Below, piece after piece: positions 11,817 through 23,229 of a DNA stretch of 64,000 nt (within the stretch, counting starts at the first letter, position 1; each line of letters opens with the position of its first letter). The notes under the pieces were generated by a model. That model searched no databases and was not told where the DNA came from. It worked only from the letters and a program-made list of their open reading frames with translations. The translations under genes were made by a program, and so were the position numbers. Origin of the DNA: Phormidesmis sp. (GTDB lineage Bacteria > Cyanobacteriota > Cyanobacteriia > Leptolyngbyales > Leptolyngbyaceae); contig CBDFJR010000002.1 in NCBI GenBank assembly GCA_965248535.1, positions 2,048,001-2,112,000 of the forward strand. The letters are read 5' to 3'.

Positions 11817-13304
11817 TTGACTAACATGGATTCGACCACCAAACGAGCAGTCGGTTCGGTCTGGCACCCTCGCCATCTTGCCCGAACCCCTTTAAAACAG
11901 CGGAAACCATCACTGGTTGCCCAAGATGATCGCGATAGACTCAGGAGCTTGAAACCGATGACTGAGTTTCATCACCCAGAAGAACAAGGGCACAGCGTTG
12001 ATCCGCCTGTGAACGCTGCTCAGGAAATGCTGAATGGCACTCCTAAAGATAAGCTTAGGAAAGCAATTTCACCCGATCGAGAACCTGCGTCTGAGCCGAC
12101 GAGGGAGATCACGTCATCCTCGACCGAGGCGGCCCCTTACGAACGACTCCAGCAGGGCCCAATCACTTATTTTCGCTACTATTTTGAAGACGCAGGACAG
12201 CCAACCTATCTGACTTCATCCCCCGTTGATCTGCCGCCGCAAAAAAGAAATATGCTGCCGCTCTATCTGGCAGGCGGTGGGGTTTTAGGAGCGACATTGA
12301 TCTCTGGGTTTGTGATCGCGGGTTTAGCCAATAATGCCAAAGCGCCCAGTCAAAAGGGCGCAACCGACTCTAAAGTTAAGCAAACGCCTGCGCCAAAGCT
12401 GATTCAGCCGCAGGTTGCGTCTCCAGAAGTGGTGCCACCCTCGCGATCGTCCCCCACAAAACCAGCCCAATCCCCTCAAAAAACCCCAGCTAAAAAACCC
12501 GCCGTGCCCACGGTGCGATCGTCGGCAGATAATCAAATTCAGCAGGCGCTGATGGTGCCTCAACCGTTGCCCGTGCCGCCGCTCCCGATCGTTTCGGTGC
12601 CGATCGCTCAGACCGTTTCAATCCCGCTGCCTGCGCCAATCATTCAGCCTTTGGCTCGGCAGGTCACGCCTCCCGCGCCAGCGCCAGCAACACCAACGCC
12701 TCCGGCACCGCTGGCTGCAAAGTCGCTGCCTGTGTTGGTCGCCAACTCATCTCCTATGCCCCCAAGTTCTGCGTCGCCTGCGCTGGCTCAATCCGGTACG
12801 GCATCAGTAGCCCCGATCGCTGATGCCCGCTGTTTAACGGCAGCTTCTGGGACTTCTTTAGCGGCTCCTGATCAAGCGATCGCCGTTCAGTCGTCCATGC
12901 TGGTTTCTGCGCCAGAAAATGTAGCGATGCCGACAGCAAACCGCAAGTCTCAAGCAGATAAAGTTGCGGTGACGGGAGCGATCGCAGACAGTGCGGCCCA
13001 AGCCTCCTCTGTTCAAGATGCAGAGAAAGATCTGCAAGCGTTTTTAGAGATTCCGCAGCGCTTTCCCAGCAGTGCGGGGCTGGCGGTGATGCCGTTGCCC
13101 TGTCAGTTAGCTCAGACAGCGACGACTAAACAGCAGGTGGCTGAGTTTAAGGTCGTTCGCCTCAGCCCTCAAGACTATCAAAAACGCTGGAAACTCAGCA
13201 GCAACAACCCTCAAGCGCTGACCCCGATCTATGGATTCGTGGATTATAAACAGCAATCCGTTGTGCTGTTAAGCGCCAAAGAAGAAAAAGTATCCAAGCT
13301 TTAA
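11817..13304 (+). CDS. Hypothetical Pro/Ala-rich single-pass membrane protein (start uncertain)
   Basis: 495-aa ORF; one hydrophobic helix (LYLAGGGVLGATLISGFVIAGLA), long Pro-rich linker, compact C-terminal region. Confidence 0.7.
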   Translation: MTNMDSTTKRAVGSVWHPRHLARTPLKQRKPSLVAQDDRDRLRSLKPMTEFHHPEEQGHSVDPPVNAAQEMLNGTPKDKLRKAISPDREPASEPTREITSSSTEAAPYERLQQGPITYFRYYFEDAGQPTYLTSSPVDLPPQKRNMLPLYLAGGGVLGATLISGFVIAGLANNAKAPSQKGATDSKVKQTPAPKLIQPQVASPEVVPPSRSSPTKPAQSPQKTPAKKPAVPTVRSSADNQIQQALMVPQPLPVPPLPIVSVPIAQTVSIPLPAPIIQPLARQVTPPAPAPATPTPPAPLAAKSLPVLVANSSPMPPSSASPALAQSGTASVAPIADARCLTAASGTSLAAPDQAIAVQSSMLVSAPENVAMPTANRKSQADKVAVTGAIADSAAQASSVQDAEKDLQAFLEIPQRFPSSAGLAVMPLPCQLAQTATTKQQVAEFKVVRLSPQDYQKRWKLSSNNPQALTPIYGFVDYKQQSVVLLSAKEEKVSKL

Positions 13305-16326: not shown

Positions 16327-17202
16327 TTAGACCGCCACAGGAGATTGCTGTTGGGCCATTTCTAACAGGCGACGAATCCGTTCTTCGGTAGAGGGATGAG
16401 TGCGAAAAAGAGACTGCAAGCCTCCAGCCGACAGTGGATTAATAATCAGCAGCGGTGACATCGCCGGATTGCCATTCATCGGAATCTGATGACCAACTTC
16501 CTCTAGTTTTTGCAACGCTCTCGCTAACGCTTGAGGATTGTGGGTGATCTGCGCCGAACCCTGATCGGCTGAAAACTCACGAGTTCGAGAAATCGCTAGC
16601 TGAATGATGGCGGCTGACAGAGGCGCAAGCACGATCAAAAACAGCAGACCGAGAGGATTAGTGCCGCGACGATCGTCGCGATAAACCGGCCCATACAACG
16701 CCCCAAAGGTGAGCATTCGTCCTAAAAATGTGATGGCTCCAGCGATCGTGCCCACCACCGCCTGAGTCAACGTGTCGCGATTTTTGACGTGGGTGAGTTC
16801 GTGCGCCAAAACCCCCTCTAACTCTTCAGGGGTCAACAAGTCTACAATCCCTTGAGTGACCGCGATCGCCGCATGGTTGGGATCACGCCCCGTGGCAAAA
16901 GCGTTAGGTGACTGCGTGGGCACAAAAAACAGCTTAGGCATGGGAATGTCTGCCCGATCGCTGAGTTTCGCCACCATGTCAAACAATTCGGGGGCTTCAT
17001 CTCGCTCGATCGGTTGGGCTGCATAGGCCGCGAGTGCAGCTTTATCAGAGTAATACCAAGAGCCGATGCTGCTCATGGCGGCAAAGGTCAGGCCTAGATA
17101 AAGACCCTGTTCGTCACCGATGAGATAATATCCGCCCAGCACTAGCAATCCACTCAGCAGTCCTAGCAGTGCAACTGTTTTGATCTCGTTGATCCCAAGC
17201 AT
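16327..17202 (-). CDS. htpX: Zinc metalloprotease HtpX (M48)
   Basis: PNAFATGR, HELTH zinc motif, SRTREFSAD, THPSTEERI. Confidence 0.92.
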   Translation of the reverse strand: MLGINEIKTVALLGLLSGLLVLGGYYLIGDEQGLYLGLTFAAMSSIGSWYYSDKAALAAYAAQPIERDEAPELFDMVAKLSDRADIPMPKLFFVPTQSPNAFATGRDPNHAAIAVTQGIVDLLTPEELEGVLAHELTHVKNRDTLTQAVVGTIAGAITFLGRMLTFGALYGPVYRDDRRGTNPLGLLFLIVLAPLSAAIIQLAISRTREFSADQGSAQITHNPQALARALQKLEEVGHQIPMNGNPAMSPLLIINPLSAGGLQSLFRTHPSTEERIRRLLEMAQQQSPVAV

Positions 17203-17403
17203 GGCTTTTCCCAAAACGCTTTGATGACTTTCTCAACGTCTCAGATTTAGAACCCCTTGAAATCTATCGGATGAGTGAAATGAAGGATTACTCAATGAGC
17301 CGAAGGCTTGGCGATCGGGCAAGATTGTCTAGGTGAAGAAAGATTAAATGATGTCGGTGATTATGGCTGCAATAACAAGTTGGGCAATGAGATAGCTGTA
17401 CCT

Positions 17404-17454
17404 TTACTCCTCTGTTGAGCAGCAAATAGAACCCGGTAGATTCAGTTGTCCCAT
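17404..17454 (-). pseudogene. Stub of a truncated PIN toxin gene
   Basis: Reads MGQLNLPGSICCSTEE*; starts like the intact PIN (MGQLTIPP) and overlaps the upstream antitoxin stop with the same 13-bp geometry. Confidence 0.6.
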
Positions 17455-17672
17455 GAGGATCTCTCTTCCTGCAAGTATTGATCGACTTCTTCTGGGGTGT
17501 GGAAGAGTTGTTGTCCGGGCGCTTCGTTGAGAAGGTCGATGATCGACTGTTTGGGTTGTGGGGTTGTTGAAAGAAGGCGCGATCGCACGAGGTTTTGCTC
17601 TGCGGGTGAGAGTGCATGAATTGCCTGAATGAGCGACTCAACAAGCTGAAAGTTAATGGTTGTACTGTTCAT
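17442..17672 (-). CDS. Putative antitoxin (orphan), related at the C-terminus to 18230..18469
   Basis: C-terminus F.T.EEVDQYLQEERSSWDN matches F.S.EEIDRNLQMERDSWDS; uses the duplicated RBS/ATG. Confidence 0.7.
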   Translation of the reverse strand: MNSTTINFQLVESLIQAIHALSPAEQNLVRSRLLSTTPQPKQSIIDLLNEAPGQQLFHTPEEVDQYLQEERSSWDN

Positions 17673-17791
17673 AGATTTTTTCCTTGATACATTTTTAGTT
17701 TTTAATGCTCGATCGCCCCTAGTGCTTTCAGCGTTGCTTTTTCTGCTTCAGTCAAGCCTTTGACTCCCGTGATGTTCATGCCTTCATAAGG
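17670..17791 (-). repeat. 122-bp direct repeat copy A (relic NACHT-WD40 3' end plus downstream RBS/ATG)
   Basis: Aligns ungapped to 18467..18588 with 6 mismatches by manual comparison. Confidence 0.95.
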
Positions 17792-17801
17792 GCGATCGCG
17801 T

Positions 17802-18242
17802 TTATGCATTCAAAACATCCTTAAGCACCACTACAGACAACCCTGGAACCGTTCGCAAGCCACCATCGTTAGTCAAGAAAAGGGTACAACCTAGACTGAG
17901 TACAGTGGCAGCATGGATGGCATCAGGTGTTTTTAGATGAGTGATCGCACGCAGATTGGCAGCAGATCTGAGAATATCTTGGCTAATTGCAACGAGATGG
18001 ATATCGTCTCTGAACAGATCTTCATAGATTTCAATCAGTGATGTATTGCTGTTTTTGAGTGGAGAGACGAGGGTTTCTAGCAAAAGCAGTTCACTACTAA
18101 CGATGTTAACTTCGTTGGCTTGGGATTTAGCCCACAGGGGCTGAAGCAGTGTCCAGTAGTCTAGATTAATCTCGACACTGTAAATAACGGGTGCAGTATC
18201 GACATAAACAGTTGCATCTGGAGGAATGGTTAGCTGTCCCAT
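17802..18242 (-). CDS. PIN domain (VapC-like) toxin
   Basis: VYVDTAPVIY, ELLLLETLV, LKTPDAIHAAT, FLTND acidic PIN residues. Confidence 0.9.
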   Translation of the reverse strand: MGQLTIPPDATVYVDTAPVIYSVEINLDYWTLLQPLWAKSQANEVNIVSSELLLLETLVSPLKNSNTSLIEIYEDLFRDDIHLVAISQDILRSAANLRAITHLKTPDAIHAATVLSLGCTLFLTNDGGLRTVPGLSVVVLKDVLNA

Positions 18243-18469
18243 GAATCTCGCTCCATTTGCAGATTGCGATCGATTTCTTCAACGCTTCGGAAAGGACCTA
18301 GTTTGTGAGCAGCGTCCAAAATTTCTAAGGCTCTGCGTTTTGAAGCCGTTGGCTTCTCTGGCAACATCACGATGACTTCGATGTCTTCACCGATTTCCCC
18401 TTCAGGGATTTCAATTTCAATTTTATTACCTGGAAGAATTTTAGTTATCACACGTAAAGCAGCTTGCAT
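18230..18469 (-). CDS. Putative antitoxin for the PIN toxin
   Basis: 79 aa, directly upstream of and overlapping the PIN gene; beta-rich N-terminus (GNKIEIEIP..GEDIEVIV). Confidence 0.75.
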   Translation of the reverse strand: MQAALRVITKILPGNKIEIEIPEGEIGEDIEVIVMLPEKPTASKRRALEILDAAHKLGPFRSVEEIDRNLQMERDSWDS

Positions 18470-18588
18470 AGATTTTCTCCTTGATACATTTTTAGTTTTT
18501 AATGCTCGATCGCTCCTAGCGCTTTCAGCGTAGCTTTTTCTGCTTCAGTTAAGCCTTTGACTCCCGTGATGTTCATGCCTTCATAGGG
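18467..18588 (-). repeat. 122-bp direct repeat copy B (actual NACHT-WD40 3' end plus RBS/ATG)
   Basis: Encodes PYEGMNITGVKGLTEAEKATLKALGAIEH* and the following intergenic sequence. Confidence 0.95.
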
Positions 18589-21500
18589 TTTGTTACTCAG
18601 CGTTTTCAAACACTCACCTGATTCAATATCCCAAAATTTAATTGTTTCATCATAGCCACCACTCACCAGTGTTCTATTATCTGGAACAAAAGTCACTGAG
18701 CGTACTCGATTGGTATGACCATTAAAAGTTTTAAGGCATTCCCCAGTGTAAGCATCCCAGAGCTTTACTGTGTGATCAAGACTACCAGTAGCTAAGAATT
18801 TACTATCACAACTAAAGGATACTGAATCTATTTCACTGGTGTGTCCTTGCAAAGTTTTGAGATATTTTCCCGTACGGAGATTCCATGTTTTGACTGTTTG
18901 GTCTCGACTACCACTAGCTAAAAACTCTCCATTGGGTGCAATAGCGACAGAGCGAATACGATCAGTATGTCCTGTTAAAACTTCACGACATTCTCCTAAG
19001 TTTACGTCCCATAACTTTACTGTTTTGTCAGTGCTGACACTAGCAATAGTTGCACCATCCGGGCTAATGGCAACTGAATTGATCCAGCCATCATGCTGTC
19101 CTTGAAGAGTTTTCAAACATTCACCACTAAGAACATCCCATAACTTTATAGTGCCGTCATCATTACAACTCACCAGAGTCGCACCGTCAGGACTGAATAC
19201 AACTCCTGCCATGTGACTATTGTGCCCATGTAGGGTTTTAAGGCAGTCTCCAGTGTGGATGTCCCAAAGTTTGACTGTATCATCACCACTGCCACTAGCA
19301 AGAGTTTTACCATCAAGACTAATCGCAACTGAACTTATCCACTTGTGATGTCCCTCTAAGGTTCTAAAACAATCTCCAGTGGATGTATTCCATAGCTTGA
19401 CTGTCTTATCATTACTGCCAACAGCAAGAAATCTTCCATCGGGACTAACGACAACTGTATCGATCCAACGACTATTGCCTTGGAATGTCCTCAAACAATT
19501 GCCAGTCTGCGTATTCCAGAGCTTCACTGTCTGATCATCACTGATGCTAACAAAGATTGTGTTGTCTGAATTAAAAGCAATTTTCCTGACTCTAGCGGAA
19601 TGCCCTTCTATAGTTTTGATACATTCGCCAGTACTAATATCCCAAAACTTTATCGTTTGATCTCTACTACCACTTGCAAGAGTTTTATTGTCTTGACTGA
19701 AGGCAATTGATCGTACGCTACGAGTATGACCTTCTAAAATCTTAATGCACTCATGGGTAAAAGGATTCCAGAGCTTTACTGTGTTATCTGAACTACCGCT
19801 TGCAAGAATCTTGCCATCATAACTGAATACTAATGAGAGAACGGACTTAGTTTGTCCTTCTAAGGTTTTCAAACATTGTTCTGAATCTATATCCCAGAAC
19901 TTGATCGTTTTGTCAAAACTACCACTTGCTAAGGTTTTCTCATCAGGAGAGACTGCGATTGCCCATATTATATCTGTATGCCCTTGAAAAGTCTTCAAAC
20001 AGCCTCCCGTCTGAACATCCCAGAGTTTTATGGTTTTATCATCACTGCTACTGGCAAGAATTGTACCGTCTGAATTAAAAGCTATTGATCTCACTGCACC
20101 AGCATGACCCGCCATAACTCTTAGGCATTTCCCGGTATCACTATTCCATAGTTTTACTATTCCTTCATGCCCACCACTAGCAAGAATCAAGCCGTCAGGA
20201 GTAAATGCCACTGAGCTAATCCAATCGCTGTGTCCTCTGAACTTCAGAATTTGCTCACCATTGTCAACTTGCCAAAAGCGAAGTTCACCATCTGCTCCAC
20301 CCGTTACAAATAACTGAGCTTTAGGGCTGAATGCAACGGATAAAAGAAGACCAAAAGCTTCGAGAAAAATAGAATTGGTTAAGTCTGCTTCCGAAAAGTT
20401 AACGTGTCGTAAGCTAGCATTTGTGAAATTAGCACCTTGAAGAATGCTATGGCTAAGATCTCTACCCTCAAGAGCAGTTTTATCCATCGCAACTATCAAT
20501 GTTGCTGTATTGCCTCCGACATAATCTACTTCTACCTTAGTTTTCCCTCGTACTGTATCCAAAATATTTTGGAGGGAAGAATAGTGCGCTACTGAAACAT
20601 GCAACATTGGCAAAATCAGATCTAGTACTGCTTTCGGTAATGATATTTGCCCAAAGCCCGATCGCAACACTTCCAAACTCTCATTCACAAACTCTTTCAA
20701 GGGTGCAATCTGTTTTTCGCGGTGACCAAAATACTCTGACCACTGATAGTCACGCGGTCTCAGGGTGGTATCGACGCAGGGTTGCATCTGTGCTAACTCC
20801 AAAAAATCAGGCGCTAAGGCACCTAATTCAGCGGCAAATTTGTAGGCGACAAAGAACTCTAAGAGCGATCGATGCGCTGGCATATAATCCCCATCAGCAT
20901 TGCGGATCAACATCGTCTGACCCATCATGTCGTAGTGCCAGTGATCCAAGTCTTTCTCTTCCTGAACCACTGAACCAAACAAGCGACGGATACGATCAGG
21001 AAACTCACGATAGTTGAGACTCATGCGATCCGTAGACAACATTTCCCACGACAACTCACACAAGAAATAGAGCTTTTCTGCCAGGGAGGTAAACGTGCGT
21101 TCTGCCTTGATGTCTCGCTCCATTTTGCGTCGTACTGCGTAGAGATAAACACGCGACATATCTACAGGTTTACCCGCTTCAATATCCGGTAGCGCCTCCA
21201 AAATCAATTCTGTCATCACCGGACGACGCGCCAAATCAAGCAATTGTGCGTTGTTCATCACCTGTTGCACCACCTCTGAAGATGCCTGCAACGCCAAGAC
21301 TTGCCGAATTTGCTCATCGTCAAACTTCTCCAGTTCCAGCACCTCAAACTGAGGCGTATCTTCGTTCAGGTTGATGGTTGAGGCTTTAAGTTCCGCATTC
21401 AGTAGCGCCCGTCCTTCTTTGACTTCTGGGAAATGCTCCGTCCGACAGGTCAAAATCACCTTTGCCCCTGGCACGACGATTTTTGCCAATTCCCAAAAGT

Positions 21501-22935
21501 TATTGATCATCTCCTGGCGATCGACCCGCGCTGCCATCTCGTCAAAGCCATCAAAAATCAGCAGCAGCTTGCCCATGCGGTTGAGTTGCTCAAACGCTGA
21601 ATAACCGGGAATTGGAATCTCGTGTTTGCGGAAGAAGAACTCGGAAAACAACGACTCCACGCTCACTGCTTTAGCATAATCGCGCAAGGGAATGACCAGC
21701 GGCAGACGCGGACGATCGACTCCCCGCTTTTGGGCATCCCGATAGCGTTGCAAGGCAACCCAGGCATAGTGCAGCGCAAACCAGGTTTTCCCAGTGCCAA
21801 ACTCACCCAAGACAGAAATATGCTCCTTCGCCGGATCGTCCAGCCATTGGTCAATGTAGCCATCGATCCAGCCATCACGATCGTCGTAACGACTCACCGC
21901 AATGCGCTGCTGTGTCACCGGGTCTAATTCTTCTTTGGTGCAAGCCAGCGGCACGTACTTCTGCTCAATCTGCCGCTGTTGAATTTCTGCCTCTAGCCAA
22001 CTCAGGTATCCACTAAAGTCAGCATCTTGATCCAGCAATTCATCAAAGGTGTAGCAGCCCAAATGAGCGTTTTCGGGTTTCTCAACTTCAGTACGCGCCG
22101 CTCGACTAATCCGTCGGGTCGTGACCAGCCAACCTTCATCGGTGCGCTGCTGTTCCACCGATTGACGCAGCATTCCCACATCGCCAATCTCAGCCGCGCC
22201 TTCCATGCCCCGCACCAGAATGCGATCGTACCGTCCCCGCCGCACCGGAATATTAATCACCCACTCAAAATAATCGTTTTGCCAAATTTCATGGGTCTCA
22301 AAGCGATAGCCCAAGGTTTCAAACCAACCTTTCATCTGTTGCGCCAGCGCAAAGGCTCTACACTGCCGATCCTGAGATTCAGCCGATGGTAAAGCTAAAC
22401 TTTGGGCGGCGAGCCGAGCCATCTCCGTTCGCATTCCCTCTAACGTCGGCAACCGAGTCAATCGTTCTTGAACCGTGCCGATTTGCTGATGGAGCGACTC
22501 TAATTTTTGATTCGTCAACACTTCAGCCGGAGTGCGAGTGCGTTTAGCAACTTCAATAAAAATGGCGGCAAACTGATAAAACTCTCGTCTGGCATCAATG
22601 CCTAGCTCCTGAATTTGTTCGCCTAGGGCATGGCTTGACAGAAACTTCTCGCCTTCTTGCAGCAACAGCGCCGAGTTGTTGCGATCGAGTGCCTTACGAA
22701 AGATCGCTTGGATTGCCAACTGCCGGAAAATCTCCAGCACAGGCTTTGGCTTACCGATGCCATACTCAACCAGGGTGTACTGGTAAACGGCTGTGAAATC
22801 CGCTGGGGGATGATCGGGATCGAGGTTCAGTTGCTTTAACAGCTTAATCACAAGCTCATTGCGCTGAAGCTTGTTTTGCACAACGGGACTCGCAAACCCG
22901 ACAATGATATCGATTAGCTTAACCAACTCAATCAC
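18499..22935 (-). CDS. NLR-like STAND protein: N-terminal helical domain, restriction-endonuclease-like domain, NACHT NTPase, pentapeptide repeats, about 14 WD40 repeats
   Basis: GEFGTGKT Walker A, LLLIFDGFDEM Walker B, ILTCRTEHF; LSHSILQGANFTNASLRHVNFSEADLT pentapeptides; repeated GH...V.SVAFS.DG..LASGS.D.T.KLWD. Confidence 0.92.
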   Translation of the reverse strand: MIELVKLIDIIVGFASPVVQNKLQRNELVIKLLKQLNLDPDHPPADFTAVYQYTLVEYGIGKPKPVLEIFRQLAIQAIFRKALDRNNSALLLQEGEKFLSSHALGEQIQELGIDARREFYQFAAIFIEVAKRTRTPAEVLTNQKLESLHQQIGTVQERLTRLPTLEGMRTEMARLAAQSLALPSAESQDRQCRAFALAQQMKGWFETLGYRFETHEIWQNDYFEWVINIPVRRGRYDRILVRGMEGAAEIGDVGMLRQSVEQQRTDEGWLVTTRRISRAARTEVEKPENAHLGCYTFDELLDQDADFSGYLSWLEAEIQQRQIEQKYVPLACTKEELDPVTQQRIAVSRYDDRDGWIDGYIDQWLDDPAKEHISVLGEFGTGKTWFALHYAWVALQRYRDAQKRGVDRPRLPLVIPLRDYAKAVSVESLFSEFFFRKHEIPIPGYSAFEQLNRMGKLLLIFDGFDEMAARVDRQEMINNFWELAKIVVPGAKVILTCRTEHFPEVKEGRALLNAELKASTINLNEDTPQFEVLELEKFDDEQIRQVLALQASSEVVQQVMNNAQLLDLARRPVMTELILEALPDIEAGKPVDMSRVYLYAVRRKMERDIKAERTFTSLAEKLYFLCELSWEMLSTDRMSLNYREFPDRIRRLFGSVVQEEKDLDHWHYDMMGQTMLIRNADGDYMPAHRSLLEFFVAYKFAAELGALAPDFLELAQMQPCVDTTLRPRDYQWSEYFGHREKQIAPLKEFVNESLEVLRSGFGQISLPKAVLDLILPMLHVSVAHYSSLQNILDTVRGKTKVEVDYVGGNTATLIVAMDKTALEGRDLSHSILQGANFTNASLRHVNFSEADLTNSIFLEAFGLLLSVAFSPKAQLFVTGGADGELRFWQVDNGEQILKFRGHSDWISSVAFTPDGLILASGGHEGIVKLWNSDTGKCLRVMAGHAGAVRSIAFNSDGTILASSSDDKTIKLWDVQTGGCLKTFQGHTDIIWAIAVSPDEKTLASGSFDKTIKFWDIDSEQCLKTLEGQTKSVLSLVFSYDGKILASGSSDNTVKLWNPFTHECIKILEGHTRSVRSIAFSQDNKTLASGSRDQTIKFWDISTGECIKTIEGHSARVRKIAFNSDNTIFVSISDDQTVKLWNTQTGNCLRTFQGNSRWIDTVVVSPDGRFLAVGSNDKTVKLWNTSTGDCFRTLEGHHKWISSVAISLDGKTLASGSGDDTVKLWDIHTGDCLKTLHGHNSHMAGVVFSPDGATLVSCNDDGTIKLWDVLSGECLKTLQGQHDGWINSVAISPDGATIASVSTDKTVKLWDVNLGECREVLTGHTDRIRSVAIAPNGEFLASGSRDQTVKTWNLRTGKYLKTLQGHTSEIDSVSFSCDSKFLATGSLDHTVKLWDAYTGECLKTFNGHTNRVRSVTFVPDNRTLVSGGYDETIKFWDIESGECLKTLSNKPYEGMNITGVKGLTEAEKATLKALGAIEH

Positions 22936-23110
22936 AGGGTTTCTCCGCAGGACGATCAGGACTCAATCGTTATTATCCAAACTCCATCGGTTAAATGGGC
23001 AAACCAGCAGATTTTTCTCATCTAAGCCTTGCTCTATGGTTATGAATTCTCTCCTGCCGAGTCAATCACATCTACAAATTGGACTTTGGCTGAATCCAAA
23101 ACCACAACAA

Positions 23111-23133
23111 AGGGACTGACGCTGCCAGTCCCT
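23111..23133 (-). terminator. Terminator hairpin after tRNA-Leu
   Basis: AGGGACTG-N7-CAGTCCCT, T-rich downstream on the minus strand. Confidence 0.7.
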
Positions 23134-23147
23134 CAAGGGTAAATATA

Positions 23148-23229
23148 TGCGGATGAAAGGACTTGAACCTTCACTTCTTGCGAAACCAGAACCTAAATCT
23201 GGCGCGTCTACCAATTCCGCCACATCCGC
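23148..23229 (-). tRNA. trnL: tRNA-Leu (TAG)
   Basis: GCGGATG/CATCCGC acceptor stem, CCAGA-TTTAGGT-TCTGG anticodon arm, long variable arm, GGTTCAAGTCC T-arm. Confidence 0.97.

Follow-up and report, generated by a model that had tools for sequence, protein, structure and literature searches.

In Rhs and CdiA loci, the conserved 3' region of the main gene recurs as a short copy in front of each orphan module, and through these copies homologous recombination can swap or displace the modules. Chromosomal superintegrons harbor toxin-antitoxin (TA) cassettes among their array cargo, and in cyanobacteria a HIP1-associated deletion is known from the metallothionein locus. In the accessible part of a further account, HIP1 is mentioned as a possible recombination tool and as insertion site of SDR5 (NAR 2018, PMC5861425).

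The stretch of DNA analyzed here, denoted as the window, comprises 64,000 nt from Phormidesmis sp. and harbors an NLR-like gene followed by TA units between copies of the gene's own 3' end (Table 1). It is read as a two-unit NLR-anchored array of orphan cassettes that arose through recombination within the conserved tail of this gene, with a probability of roughly one half (about 0.52). The accumulation of tail-bounded TA cassettes behind an NLR gene seems to be a mode of cassette collection that has not been described. The tail motif YEGMNI was not found in the literature, and at the level of titles and abstract openings no account was found of such TA arrays or of NACHT-WD40 genes with TA cassettes in cyanobacteria.

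Table 1. Positions of the features of the cassette locus and its flanks within the window.
Feature	Position	Strand	Remarks
htpX (peptidase M48)	16327..17214	-	conserved flank; Pfam
Inserted block, about 5.9 kb	17282..23145		between htpX upstream region and tRNA-Leu
PIN toxin 2 stump, 16 codons	17404..17454	-	MGQLNLPGSICCSTEE followed by stop; overlaps antitoxin 2 stop
Putative antitoxin 2, 76 aa, cassette type B	17442..17672	-	ORF
Relic tail repeat	17670..17797	-	122-nt copy plus two upstream Asp-Arg codons; spacer, ATG of antitoxin 2
Predicted 35-codon open frame over relic	17702..17809	-	MHKRDRPYEG...; ATG overlaps PIN 3' end
HIP1 octamer GCGATCGC	17792..17799		cargo/relic junction; bases 3-8 are the relic Asp-Arg codons
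PIN-domain toxin 1, 146 aa, intact	17802..18242	-	Pfam PIN
Putative antitoxin 1, 79 aa, cassette type A	18230..18469	-	ORF; C-terminus with EEIDRNLQMERDSWD motif
Live repeat copy	18467..18588	-	29 codons (PYEGMNITGVKGLTEAEKATLKALGAIEH), TAA, spacer with AAGGAG, ATG of antitoxin 1
NLR-like STAND NTPase, 1478 aa	18499..22935	-	NNH5, NA-iREase1, NACHT, 14 WD40 stretches, conserved C-terminal tail (Pfam)
tRNA-Leu (anticodon tag)	23148..23229	-	block border; ARAGORN, Rfam tRNA

An integrase-free block between htpX and tRNA-Leu

Synteny with genus relatives (blastn) breaks at 17281-17291 and 23142-23146 and picks up again at 23146. The block is missing from the htpX/tRNA-Leu site of three genus relatives, where the gap measures 97 bp (G007), 760 bp (G006), and 1.95 kb (G002), and htpX shows 93-96% amino acid identity across four genus relatives. 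Apart from the NLR gene, the block contains two antitoxin genes, one PIN gene, and the stump of another, and nothing else. A preceding sequence-only reading had called the mechanism integrase-free, and this holds for the locus: neither an integrase in the block nor a tRNA-derived att repeat at its far border was found, shared words of at least 10 nt being absent, and the tRNA was the only match of an Rfam scan. A tRNA-linked integrative island was considered and rejected on these two grounds, since the far border would be expected to repeat the 3' end of the tRNA and the block to encode an integrase.

The 1478-aa ORF contains a NACHT domain (PF05729, E 5.7e-8; 33.2 bits, cut-off 26.7), and its 14 WD40 stretches constitute the C-terminal repeat sensor of an NLR-like protein. 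No enzymatic effector domain was detected in it, and in PADLOC it matched none of the models described for anti-phage NLR systems; the repeat region gave HEAT-ARM_XIII, and apart from that there was just a weak match to mad8. Its homologue in a genome of another genus (G023) is 59% identical overall and matches 26 of the 29 tail residues; in this alignment, judged by eye, the first ~830 aligned residues are visibly far better conserved than the WD40 part.

Behind the NLR gene, antitoxin 1 and the PIN ORF (PF01850, E 4e-10; 40.8 bits, cut-off 23.6) overlap by 13 nt. The antitoxins have no match in Pfam, NCBIfam, or PADLOC. Behind NLR tails, homologues of antitoxin 1 also precede PIN genes in G023 and at G000:C2:2426364-2427037, and the layout with the small antitoxin gene immediately upstream of the toxin gene, overlapping or abutting it, is found at both places and recurs in G051 and G054. 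The window PIN protein is 50% identical to a PIN protein of the G054 array, with the common ending LKDVLNA. For comparison with the PIN stump of the window, a G054 PIN protein starts with MGQLNLPPSS. The downstream repeat copy leads into the second antitoxin, which shares 55% identity with a 78-aa gene product encoded upstream of an intact PIN gene in G054, and into the 16-codon stump. Judging from these alignments, unit 2 is a decayed cassette, the intact form of which is present in G054. Co-transcription of the cassettes with the NLR gene appears probable; a promoter/terminator scan of the coding strand between the NLR gene and the cassettes gave nothing above chance.

The antitoxin-PIN pair was described in the sequence-only reading as bracketed by a 122-bp repeat of the NACHT-WD40 gene end, and the alignment agrees: 17670-17791 and 18467-18588 form a direct repeat of 122 nt with 116 identical positions (95%) and a spacing of 797 nt. 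On the minus strand, each copy encompasses the last 29 codons of the 1478-aa ORF, TAA, a 29-nt spacer with a ribosome-binding AAGGAG or AAGGAA, and ATG. Six mismatches separate the copies, one in the spacer and five in codons, and the latter are, as had been stated, all synonymous third-position changes (relic/live CCT/CCC, TTG/TTA, GCA/GCT, GCA/GCG, and GGG/GGA). The chance of such a result is P 0.0008-0.002 when drift is allowed in both copies and 0.009-0.02 when it is confined to the relic. The genome harbors just these two copies of the 122-nt repeat, and strict and loose protein-motif scans recovered only 5-6 tails in it, so that a dispersed repeat family was rejected. X9 and X10, the assembled contigs of two short-read runs, are probably source material and hence not independent; one 749-nt piece of them spans 17759-18507, and further pieces bridge the remaining junctions, each with copy-specific letters. 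Misassembly of the repeat, which had been named as a possible refutation of the proposed mechanism, is therefore unlikely. In the small-share metagenome runs X1 and X4, coverage is limited to short, diverged pieces.

The relic had been interpreted as the tail of a different functional allele, and besides the purely synonymous differences two further observations argue for this. It carries the outgroup state at four of the five sites with G099, and at three each with G068 and G003. Over 87 positions, relic and live copy match G068 at 78 and 76, G099 at 76 and 72, G010 at 75 and 73, and G003 at 69 and 67 positions, the relic being nearer in these four; G018 and G023 are nearer to the live copy. 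Moreover, a low-depth X9/X10 contig runs from a live WD40 end (..KCLKVLRPER, then PYEG..) through tail and spacer into the start of antitoxin 2 at 91% identity. From the outgroup states and this live gene-tail-antitoxin 2 allele in co-occurring DNA, the relic can be taken as a 3' end that was once live, belonging to a different allele that used to be functional.

Tail-bounded arrays in other genomes

The tail was surveyed in 90 family genomes, the order-level search set consisting of the same 90 genomes; 184 further matches and genomes outside the family lie beyond this survey. It is present in 87 of the 90 and, among the matches listed, mostly ends frames of 1100-1550 aa. Many short-frame tails were considered as relic candidates and rejected, since they represent frameshifted or cut WD40 genes and show no cassette junctions.

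Stacking of TA units behind NLR genes by tail repeats, as the sequence-only reading had suggested for the window, recurs on a larger scale elsewhere. Three other genomes from two other genera show the same architecture with 4 to 6 tail-derived repeats each and up to six TA pairs in line: G023 has six tail copies spaced by 569-788 nt, G054 a live tail, five full relics, and one 5'-truncated relic, and G051 four relics. Between the repeats lie PIN, MazF, HNH, DUF433/DUF5615, and XisH/XisI pairs, with MazF, three PIN, HNH, and XisH/XisI pairs in G054. The cassettes are co-oriented and separated by a repeated boundary element, as in integrons; cassette types are common to more than one array, and their order differs between arrays. 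Units of the genus g38 are longer, at about 200 nt. Most relics outside the window contain stops, frameshifts, or insertions, and in several relic frames the ATG overlaps the upstream stop.

The junction itself is also found in another genus. In G023 (L024 ~13020-13150), a homologous succession of PIN end, TAA, 2 nt, GCGATCGC, and relic is ~76% identical to that of the window, the same level as the cargo. Among the matches listed, arrays or relic-flanked cassettes are confined to four genomes, which belong to 3 of 27 genera. Of about 21 long-frame tails, only a few are followed by cassettes, and none were found downstream of five homologous ~1500-aa NLR genes (G010, G018, G099, G003, and G009).

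Origin of the array

According to the preferred reading, the 29-codon tail, conserved at the DNA level across the family, would form together with the RBS spacer a portable stretch of homology, with antitoxin and toxin cassettes placed between tail copies. A crossover in the tail, between a relic borne by a cassette and the live tail of the resident NLR gene, would insert the cassette beside the NLR gene and displace the previous live 3' end downstream, leaving it as a relic. In the window, the incoming piece would presumably have consisted of the present tail, antitoxin 1, and the intact PIN gene, and the displaced piece of the pristine relic tail, antitoxin 2, and the PIN stump. General homologous recombination, by natural transformation or by exchange between chromosome copies, would most plausibly drive this process. 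The usual minimum of RecA-type recombination is ~25-30 nt, and the identical runs of 35 and 36 nt within the repeat would suffice. At the homologous junction in G023, the relic is degenerate (a stop codon and substitutions) and that of the window pristine, as expected if a crossover in the tail put a live tail in place of an old relic.

Homologous recombination alone leaves the first joining of cargo and tail unexplained. Of the 17 relics that could be scored, 13 have their first base precisely at the HIP1 core CGATCGCC, which represents the Asp-Arg-Pro codons of the tail, and lie 0-15 nt beyond the stops of eight different cargo genes; the remaining four begin at ATGAAC or AAAGG or show an internal deletion. 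With a single start base behind eight cargo genes, the pattern looks site-specific and counts against the preferred reading. Most NLR genes of this class are without downstream cassettes, which counts against it as well, as does the confinement of arrays or relic-flanked cassettes to the four genomes mentioned. In the X9/X10 contigs, moreover, neither an excised nor a deleted form appeared.

The alternative, a sharpened form of the idea of the sequence-only reading, is a site-specific cassette system, in which an enzyme encoded elsewhere or a HIP1-linked process would cut and join at the HIP1 core CGATCG, with integron-like entry at the NLR gene. This alternative is tentative and, on the present evidence, rather unlikely. 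The common start base combined with unrelated spacers behind the cargo genes is in line with it, as is another HIP1-like site (GGGGCGATCG), inverted in sense and lying 70-125 nt further downstream in the unit, so that the ends of the unit can pair over 9-10 bases. In addition, the accessible part of a preprint states that HIP1 raised integration up to 7-fold and likens it to a Chi site (bioRxiv 10.1101/2024.09.10.611283). However, any two HIP1-like sites can pair, and single-strand folds of the unit gave z-scores of -0.3 to -1.7, no better than shuffles. CGATCG is common, with a frequency of once per 224 bp, occurs within about 14 nt after the stop in 6.5% of long open frames, and is only about twofold denser in the units than in the genome background. 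The block is without a recombinase, and the four relics that start elsewhere do not fit. The junction counts, too, reflect few independent events, as the relics share ancestry: those within one array are alike, and the TAG variant is limited to 3 of the 90 genomes.

The full octamer is not enriched at the junctions. A perfect HIP1 does lie 2 nt beyond the PIN stop (TAA, 17802-17804), as had been reported, at the cargo/relic junction. The start of the relic needs correcting, as it does not lie after HIP1: GAT CGC within the octamer are canonical Asp-Arg codons of the tail. Resolution at HIP1, and the expected enrichment of HIP1 at junctions above background, found no support, since six of the eight bases are the tail's own Asp-Arg codons and the octamer occupies the junction position in 3 of 13 relics compared with 5 of 25 tails still joined to WD40 sequence. 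Full HIP1 sites account for 43% of the GATCGC hexamers of this genome in any case. A more far-reaching version would regard the units starting at CGATCGCC as an integrase-free NLR-anchored cassette system with precise capture of TA pairs and renewal of the sensor 3' end in the same event, in which the toxins may provide the effector function that is missing from an NLR whose sole nuclease domain is inactive; this is considered doubtful.

Distinctly improbable is a history of deletion, in which tandem NLR-TA operons lost the body of the second NLR gene and retained its tail, with no cassette mechanism involved. Broken WD40 genes with tails are indeed common, many short-frame tails being frameshifted or cut, NLR genes do cluster (e.g. 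G070:C155), and in G003, of the same genus, the NLR gene is followed by a 96-aa WD40 fragment and then by a degenerate tail. Yet the relic of the window has no WD40-like sequence upstream, the PIN stop being 2 nt away, its junction is conserved in another genus, and arrays of 4-6 relics would demand repeated deletions ending at one base.

It is very unlikely that the repeat is primarily kept for a function, providing each cassette with translation or transcription signals or encoding a translated 35-codon relic frame, with the recombination history being secondary. Every unit ends with an RBS and ATG, the ~200-nt unit of g38 contains a TATAAT-like box (by eye), several relic-frame ATGs overlap the upstream stop, and the relic of the window is intact; against this, most relics elsewhere are interrupted, and the promoter scan scored no such site within the repeat of the window. 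Local tandem duplication with later divergence, or an assembly artefact, could yield two nearby 95% copies and is of negligible probability, as identity falls to background directly past the ATG, the cargos are different genes, and the contig pieces of two runs bridge all junctions with copy-specific letters.

Relation to known systems

If the arrays were built as proposed in the preferred reading, the conserved end of an immune-sensor gene would double as a docking site for TA modules, and the variable sensor region would become exchangeable between conserved flanks; in the sequence-only reading, incoming DNA would replace the sensor end, and the added TA unit would stabilize it. This would link the diversification of bacterial NLR genes with the role of the abundant HIP1 motif. 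The unit of 122-200 nt with its sharp CGATCG border is a concrete substrate for recombination tests in cyanobacteria, and the arrangement suggests, as a hypothesis open to testing, that the NLR may act through the TA toxins downstream of it.

With bacterial NACHT/NLR-related defence proteins, the window protein shares the NACHT NTPase, the C-terminal WD40 array, the N-terminal NNH5 and inactive-REase modules, and a WD40 part much less conserved than the rest (relative to the G023 homologue), but it differs in having no detected enzymatic effector domain. The accessible part of the NLR-related eLife 2020 account (PMC7159879) makes no mention of downstream TA cassettes and tail repeats. The putative pairs resemble type II VapBC-like TA systems in that a small upstream gene overlaps a PIN-domain gene, and depart from them, as far as the Pfam, NCBIfam, and PADLOC searches go, in antitoxins without a family match. 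As in HIP1-associated rearrangements, HIP1 stands exactly at a rearrangement junction; here, however, the site is part of conserved codons, and the octamer is no commoner at junctions than in intact genes.

Integron arrays share the small, one-directional cassettes, the repeated boundary element, and TA pairs in the cargo, and in both the newest unit seems to be nearest the anchor. Unlike in integrons, no tyrosine integrase gene lies beside the array, no clear attC-type hairpin signal was seen, and the anchor gene itself, by its coding end, is the source of the boundary element. The orphan toxin/immunity arrays of Rhs and CdiA (see PMC3967940) resemble the arrays described here in that a large gene is followed by extra modules. 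They differ in that the repeat described here includes the stop and the cargo consists of separate genes instead of an in-frame fused C-terminal toxin domain, in that the main gene encodes an intracellular NLR-like sensor and not a secreted toxin, and in that the neutralizer gene comes first. As in Rhs and CdiA loci, a tail copy precedes each module, and the cargo combines a putative toxin with its neutralizer.

Repeat unit and the 5.9-kb block

A repeat search of the window yields a direct repeat of 122 nt in two copies, 95% identical at a spacing of 797 nt. Alignment shows sharp edges, with background identity directly upstream of the unit and past its final three bases, ATG. Each unit consists of the last 29 codons of a 1478-aa ORF (PYEGMNITGVKGLTEAEKATLKALGAIEH) with its TAA stop, a spacer of 29 nt that holds AAGGAG in one copy and AAGGAA in the other, and the ATG opening the next gene. 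The copy ending this NLR-like gene is denoted here as the live copy, the downstream one as the relic, and the 29 codons as the tail. The copies enclose two ORFs with a 13-nt overlap, one of 79 aa and one of 146 aa with a PIN domain, so the antitoxin-PIN pair is indeed bracketed as the sequence-only reading had described. No further copy was found in the genome (5.03 Mb, 5 contigs), the best other match (72%) being on another contig. In two runs bearing one organism label, a 749-nt contig piece covers the interval, and the remaining junctions are crossed by other pieces with copy-specific letters; as the assembly may itself derive from these two runs, the agreement serves to check consistency and is no independent proof.

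The 1478-aa ORF comprises NNH5 (E 9e-49) and NA-iREase1 (E 3e-45) domains, a NACHT match passing the curated cut-off (E 5.7e-8), and 14 WD40 stretches; no NLR-system model in PADLOC fits it. After the relic comes a 76-aa ORF, whose stop overlaps the ATG of a frame reading MGQLNLPGSICCSTEE-stop, in which ten N-terminal residues of a PIN toxin give way to junk. The product of the 76-aa ORF is 55% identical to that of a 78-aa gene in G054, a genome of a third genus, which precedes an intact PIN gene starting MGQLNLPPSS. The second unit is thus a putative antitoxin with a truncated toxin. Neither putative antitoxin (79 aa, 76 aa) matches a family in Pfam, NCBIfam, or PADLOC.

In three congeneric genomes, the distance between htpX and tRNA-Leu(tag) is 97 bp (G007, empty), 760 bp (G006), and 1.95 kb (G002), and window homology to them breaks off at both flanks. 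The NLR gene and both units thus constitute an insertion of 5.9 kb at a site that varies within the genus. Neither an integrase within this block nor a tRNA-end repeat at its far border was detected, in line with the integrase-free character proposed earlier. Within this interval (L028, L029, and L030 in these relatives), G006 has a nucleotidyltransferase-like fragment (sequence read by eye) and G002 a gene of 410 aa. The ~70 nt directly upstream of htpX, which each of the seven other congeneric genomes retains at 77-91% identity, are probably the leader or promoter of this gene.

Elsewhere in the same genome, a second NLR of this class is split into 364- and 1057-aa ORFs, probably by a frameshift. 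It still precedes an intact antitoxin+PIN pair (DNA 66% identical to the window pair), with no relic behind it. Another tail copy has an in-frame TAA and is presumably the end of a broken WD40 gene.

Coordinates of the features discussed (window positions unless a contig or locus is named; all genes discussed are on the minus strand)
Feature	Position	Remark
Live copy of the repeat	18467-18588	ends the NLR gene
Relic	17670-17791	downstream copy
1478-aa ORF	18499-22935	NACHT-WD40
HIP1 octamer	17792-17799	GCGATCGC
749-nt contig piece	17759-18507	two runs
Homology to relatives stops	17281-17291	
Homology to relatives restarts	23142-23146	
htpX/tRNA-Leu interval	17282-23145	
Conserved ~70 nt	17215-17290	upstream of htpX
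Match of low-depth contig	17607-17791	X9 and X10
Second NLR	G000:C2:2426364-2431504	L025 6364-11504; own genome
Tail copy with in-frame TAA	G000:C2:2360372-2360461	own genome
End of G054 array	L084 10495-11357	
AIPR gene end, G052:C189	L034 ~830-930	
AIPR gene end, G048:C32	L040 ~690-790	

Tails and cassette arrays in the family

The tail occurs across the family: a search with a query of 35 residues finds it in 87 of 90 family genomes, with 334 matches in all. Among the 150 matches listed, most tails close open frames of 1100-1550 aa. The consensus reads ..C-L-x-T-L-R-x-[D/P/K]-R-P-Y-E-G-M-N-I-T-G.. Compared with its homologue in G023, a member of another genus, the NLR is far better conserved over its first ~830 residues than in the WD40 part (alignment read by eye, identity uncomputed), and the tail matches at 26 of 29 positions, which points to a variable sensor between conserved flanks. 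Several tails of genus g12 (L076, L077, L078, L079) precede a conserved acidic ORF of 68-103 aa, MSEETQQPDSENPDVV..., and behind three homologous NLR genes (G010, G018, G068; L026, L027, L052) lies a gene of ~190 aa in convergent orientation, in which the motif CTCTQTY is conserved.

The stacking of TA units behind NLR genes via tail repeats recurs in other genera. The G023 homologue (1512 aa) is followed by six tail copies at 569-788-nt spacing. The cargo that these copies separate comprises a weak PBECR2-like gene plus partner, present twice, a pair of 63 and 82 aa, one antitoxin+PIN pair, and a homologue of window antitoxin 1 whose PIN partner bears an internal deletion. In G054, six pairs come after a 1469-aa NLR, namely MazF/PemK with an 82-aa partner gene, antitoxin+PIN (three times), HNH with an 84-aa partner gene, and XisH+XisI. 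A full relic follows each of five pairs, a 5'-truncated one the first pair, and an IS-like fragment the last. The end of this array shows transposase-like fragments with weak HTH_23 and HTH_Tnp_1 matches. A G051 contig of 3.4 kb carries four relics, and its cargo is PIN, DUF433+DUF5615, XisH+XisI, and an 81-aa gene. In G052 and G048, a relic behind an AIPR abortive-infection gene supplies the last eight codons and the stop of that gene in another frame; no cargo was found behind the G048 relic. The inter-cassette unit of genus g38 (L084, L039) is ~200 nt long, with heptamer-like runs (GAATGAA GAAGTTA GAATTGA), a GGGGCGATCG site, and a TATAAT-like box ahead of the ribosome-binding site.

The arrays have cassette types in common, in different order. 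The window junction (PIN end VLNA, TAA, 2 nt, octamer, tail) aligns with the last G023 junction, where the relic is degenerate, at ~76% identity. This equals the cargo identity, so cassette and trailing relic are old and travel together.

Allelic origin of the two copies

The copies differ at six positions, one in the spacer and five in codons; the latter are all synonymous third-position changes, as had been read from the sequence. The probability of five out of five is 0.0008-0.002 with both copies drifting freely and 0.009-0.02 with the downstream copy alone drifting. The copies are mutual nearest relatives (82/87). Relic and live copy share 78 and 76 of 87 positions with G068, 76 and 72 with G099, 75 and 73 with G010, and 69 and 67 with G003, the relic being nearer in all four; the live copy is nearer to the G018 and G023 tails. 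Of the five coding sites that vary, the relic has the outgroup state at 4 (with G099), 3 (G068), and 3 (G003). Drift after duplication in place would alter the unconstrained relic most, also non-synonymously; the pattern seen fits instead two alleles that diverged while both coding and were later brought together. A low-depth contig in the short-read runs X9 and X10 matches the relic region at 91% (17 differences) and runs upstream into ..KCLKVLRPER, so that a live WD40 end leads into tail, spacer, and antitoxin 2 start. The genome itself has no copy of this allele, so the contig derives from a co-occurring relative, a related organism or strain in the same material. The proposal that the relic is the tail of another functional allele thereby gains support.

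HIP1, proposed tail recombination, and rival processes

A perfect HIP1 does lie at the junction of cargo and relic, 2 nt from the PIN stop. The proposed contrast of RDR-PYEG with SNK-PYEG reads differently: residues preceding PYEG are mostly Asp-Arg, encoded by GAT CG[CT] (one tail sample and all 30 pattern-retrieved tails). RDR therefore belongs to the tail, with six of the eight HIP1 bases being tail codons, and the SNK of the live gene is the unusual form. HIP1 occurs 5135 times in the genome (one per 979 bp) and includes 43% of all GATCGC hexamers. Among the 30 tails, retrieved without the first two HIP1 bases, the full octamer is present in 5/25 still joined to WD40-like sequence (Ser or Cys before Asp-Arg) and in 2/5 cassette-junction relics, or 3/13 including those of G023, G054, and G051. 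The octamer thus shows no enrichment at junctions.

Cassettes would be moved and stacked by recombination in the conserved tail, which is the reading favoured here. It would explain why the tails are allelic, why a junction is shared with G023, why the relic is pristine, why cassette order differs between arrays, and why no integrase is present. A crossover inside the tail, exchanging an old relic for the then-live tail, would best explain the pristine window relic; the newest unit would adjoin the NLR gene, with the decaying unit behind it. Left unaccounted for is the first joining of each cargo to the tail at one base, which keeps alive a site-specific process at the HIP1 core, unlikely as we judge it. 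Relics start with CGATCGCC in 13 of 17 scorable cases (14 counting a mutated CGGTTCGCC). These starts lie 0-15 nt past the stop codon of the gene ahead, of which there are eight kinds (two PIN types, PIN138, HNH, XisI, DUF5615, an 82-aa gene, and AIPR), and the spacers are unrelated. This pattern is weakened as CGATCG is common (one per 224 bp; 6.5% of long frames carry it no more than ~14 nt from their stop), relics within one array are alike, a TAG variant is common to three genomes, and four relics have other start points. The two HIP1-like ends of the unit can pair, yet it folds no better than shuffles. A single relic might also be left by plain deletion of a second NLR gene, and a remnant of this type is seen in G003, but this reading fits the arrays poorly.

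A literature search found no paper containing the tail motif and, judged by titles and abstract beginnings, none on NLR/TA arrays of this kind in cyanobacteria. A deletion at the metallothionein locus reportedly occurred at HIP1. TA systems have been studied on superintegrons. The manner of stacking proposed here for NLR cassettes would be that of the orphan modules behind Rhs and CdiA genes.
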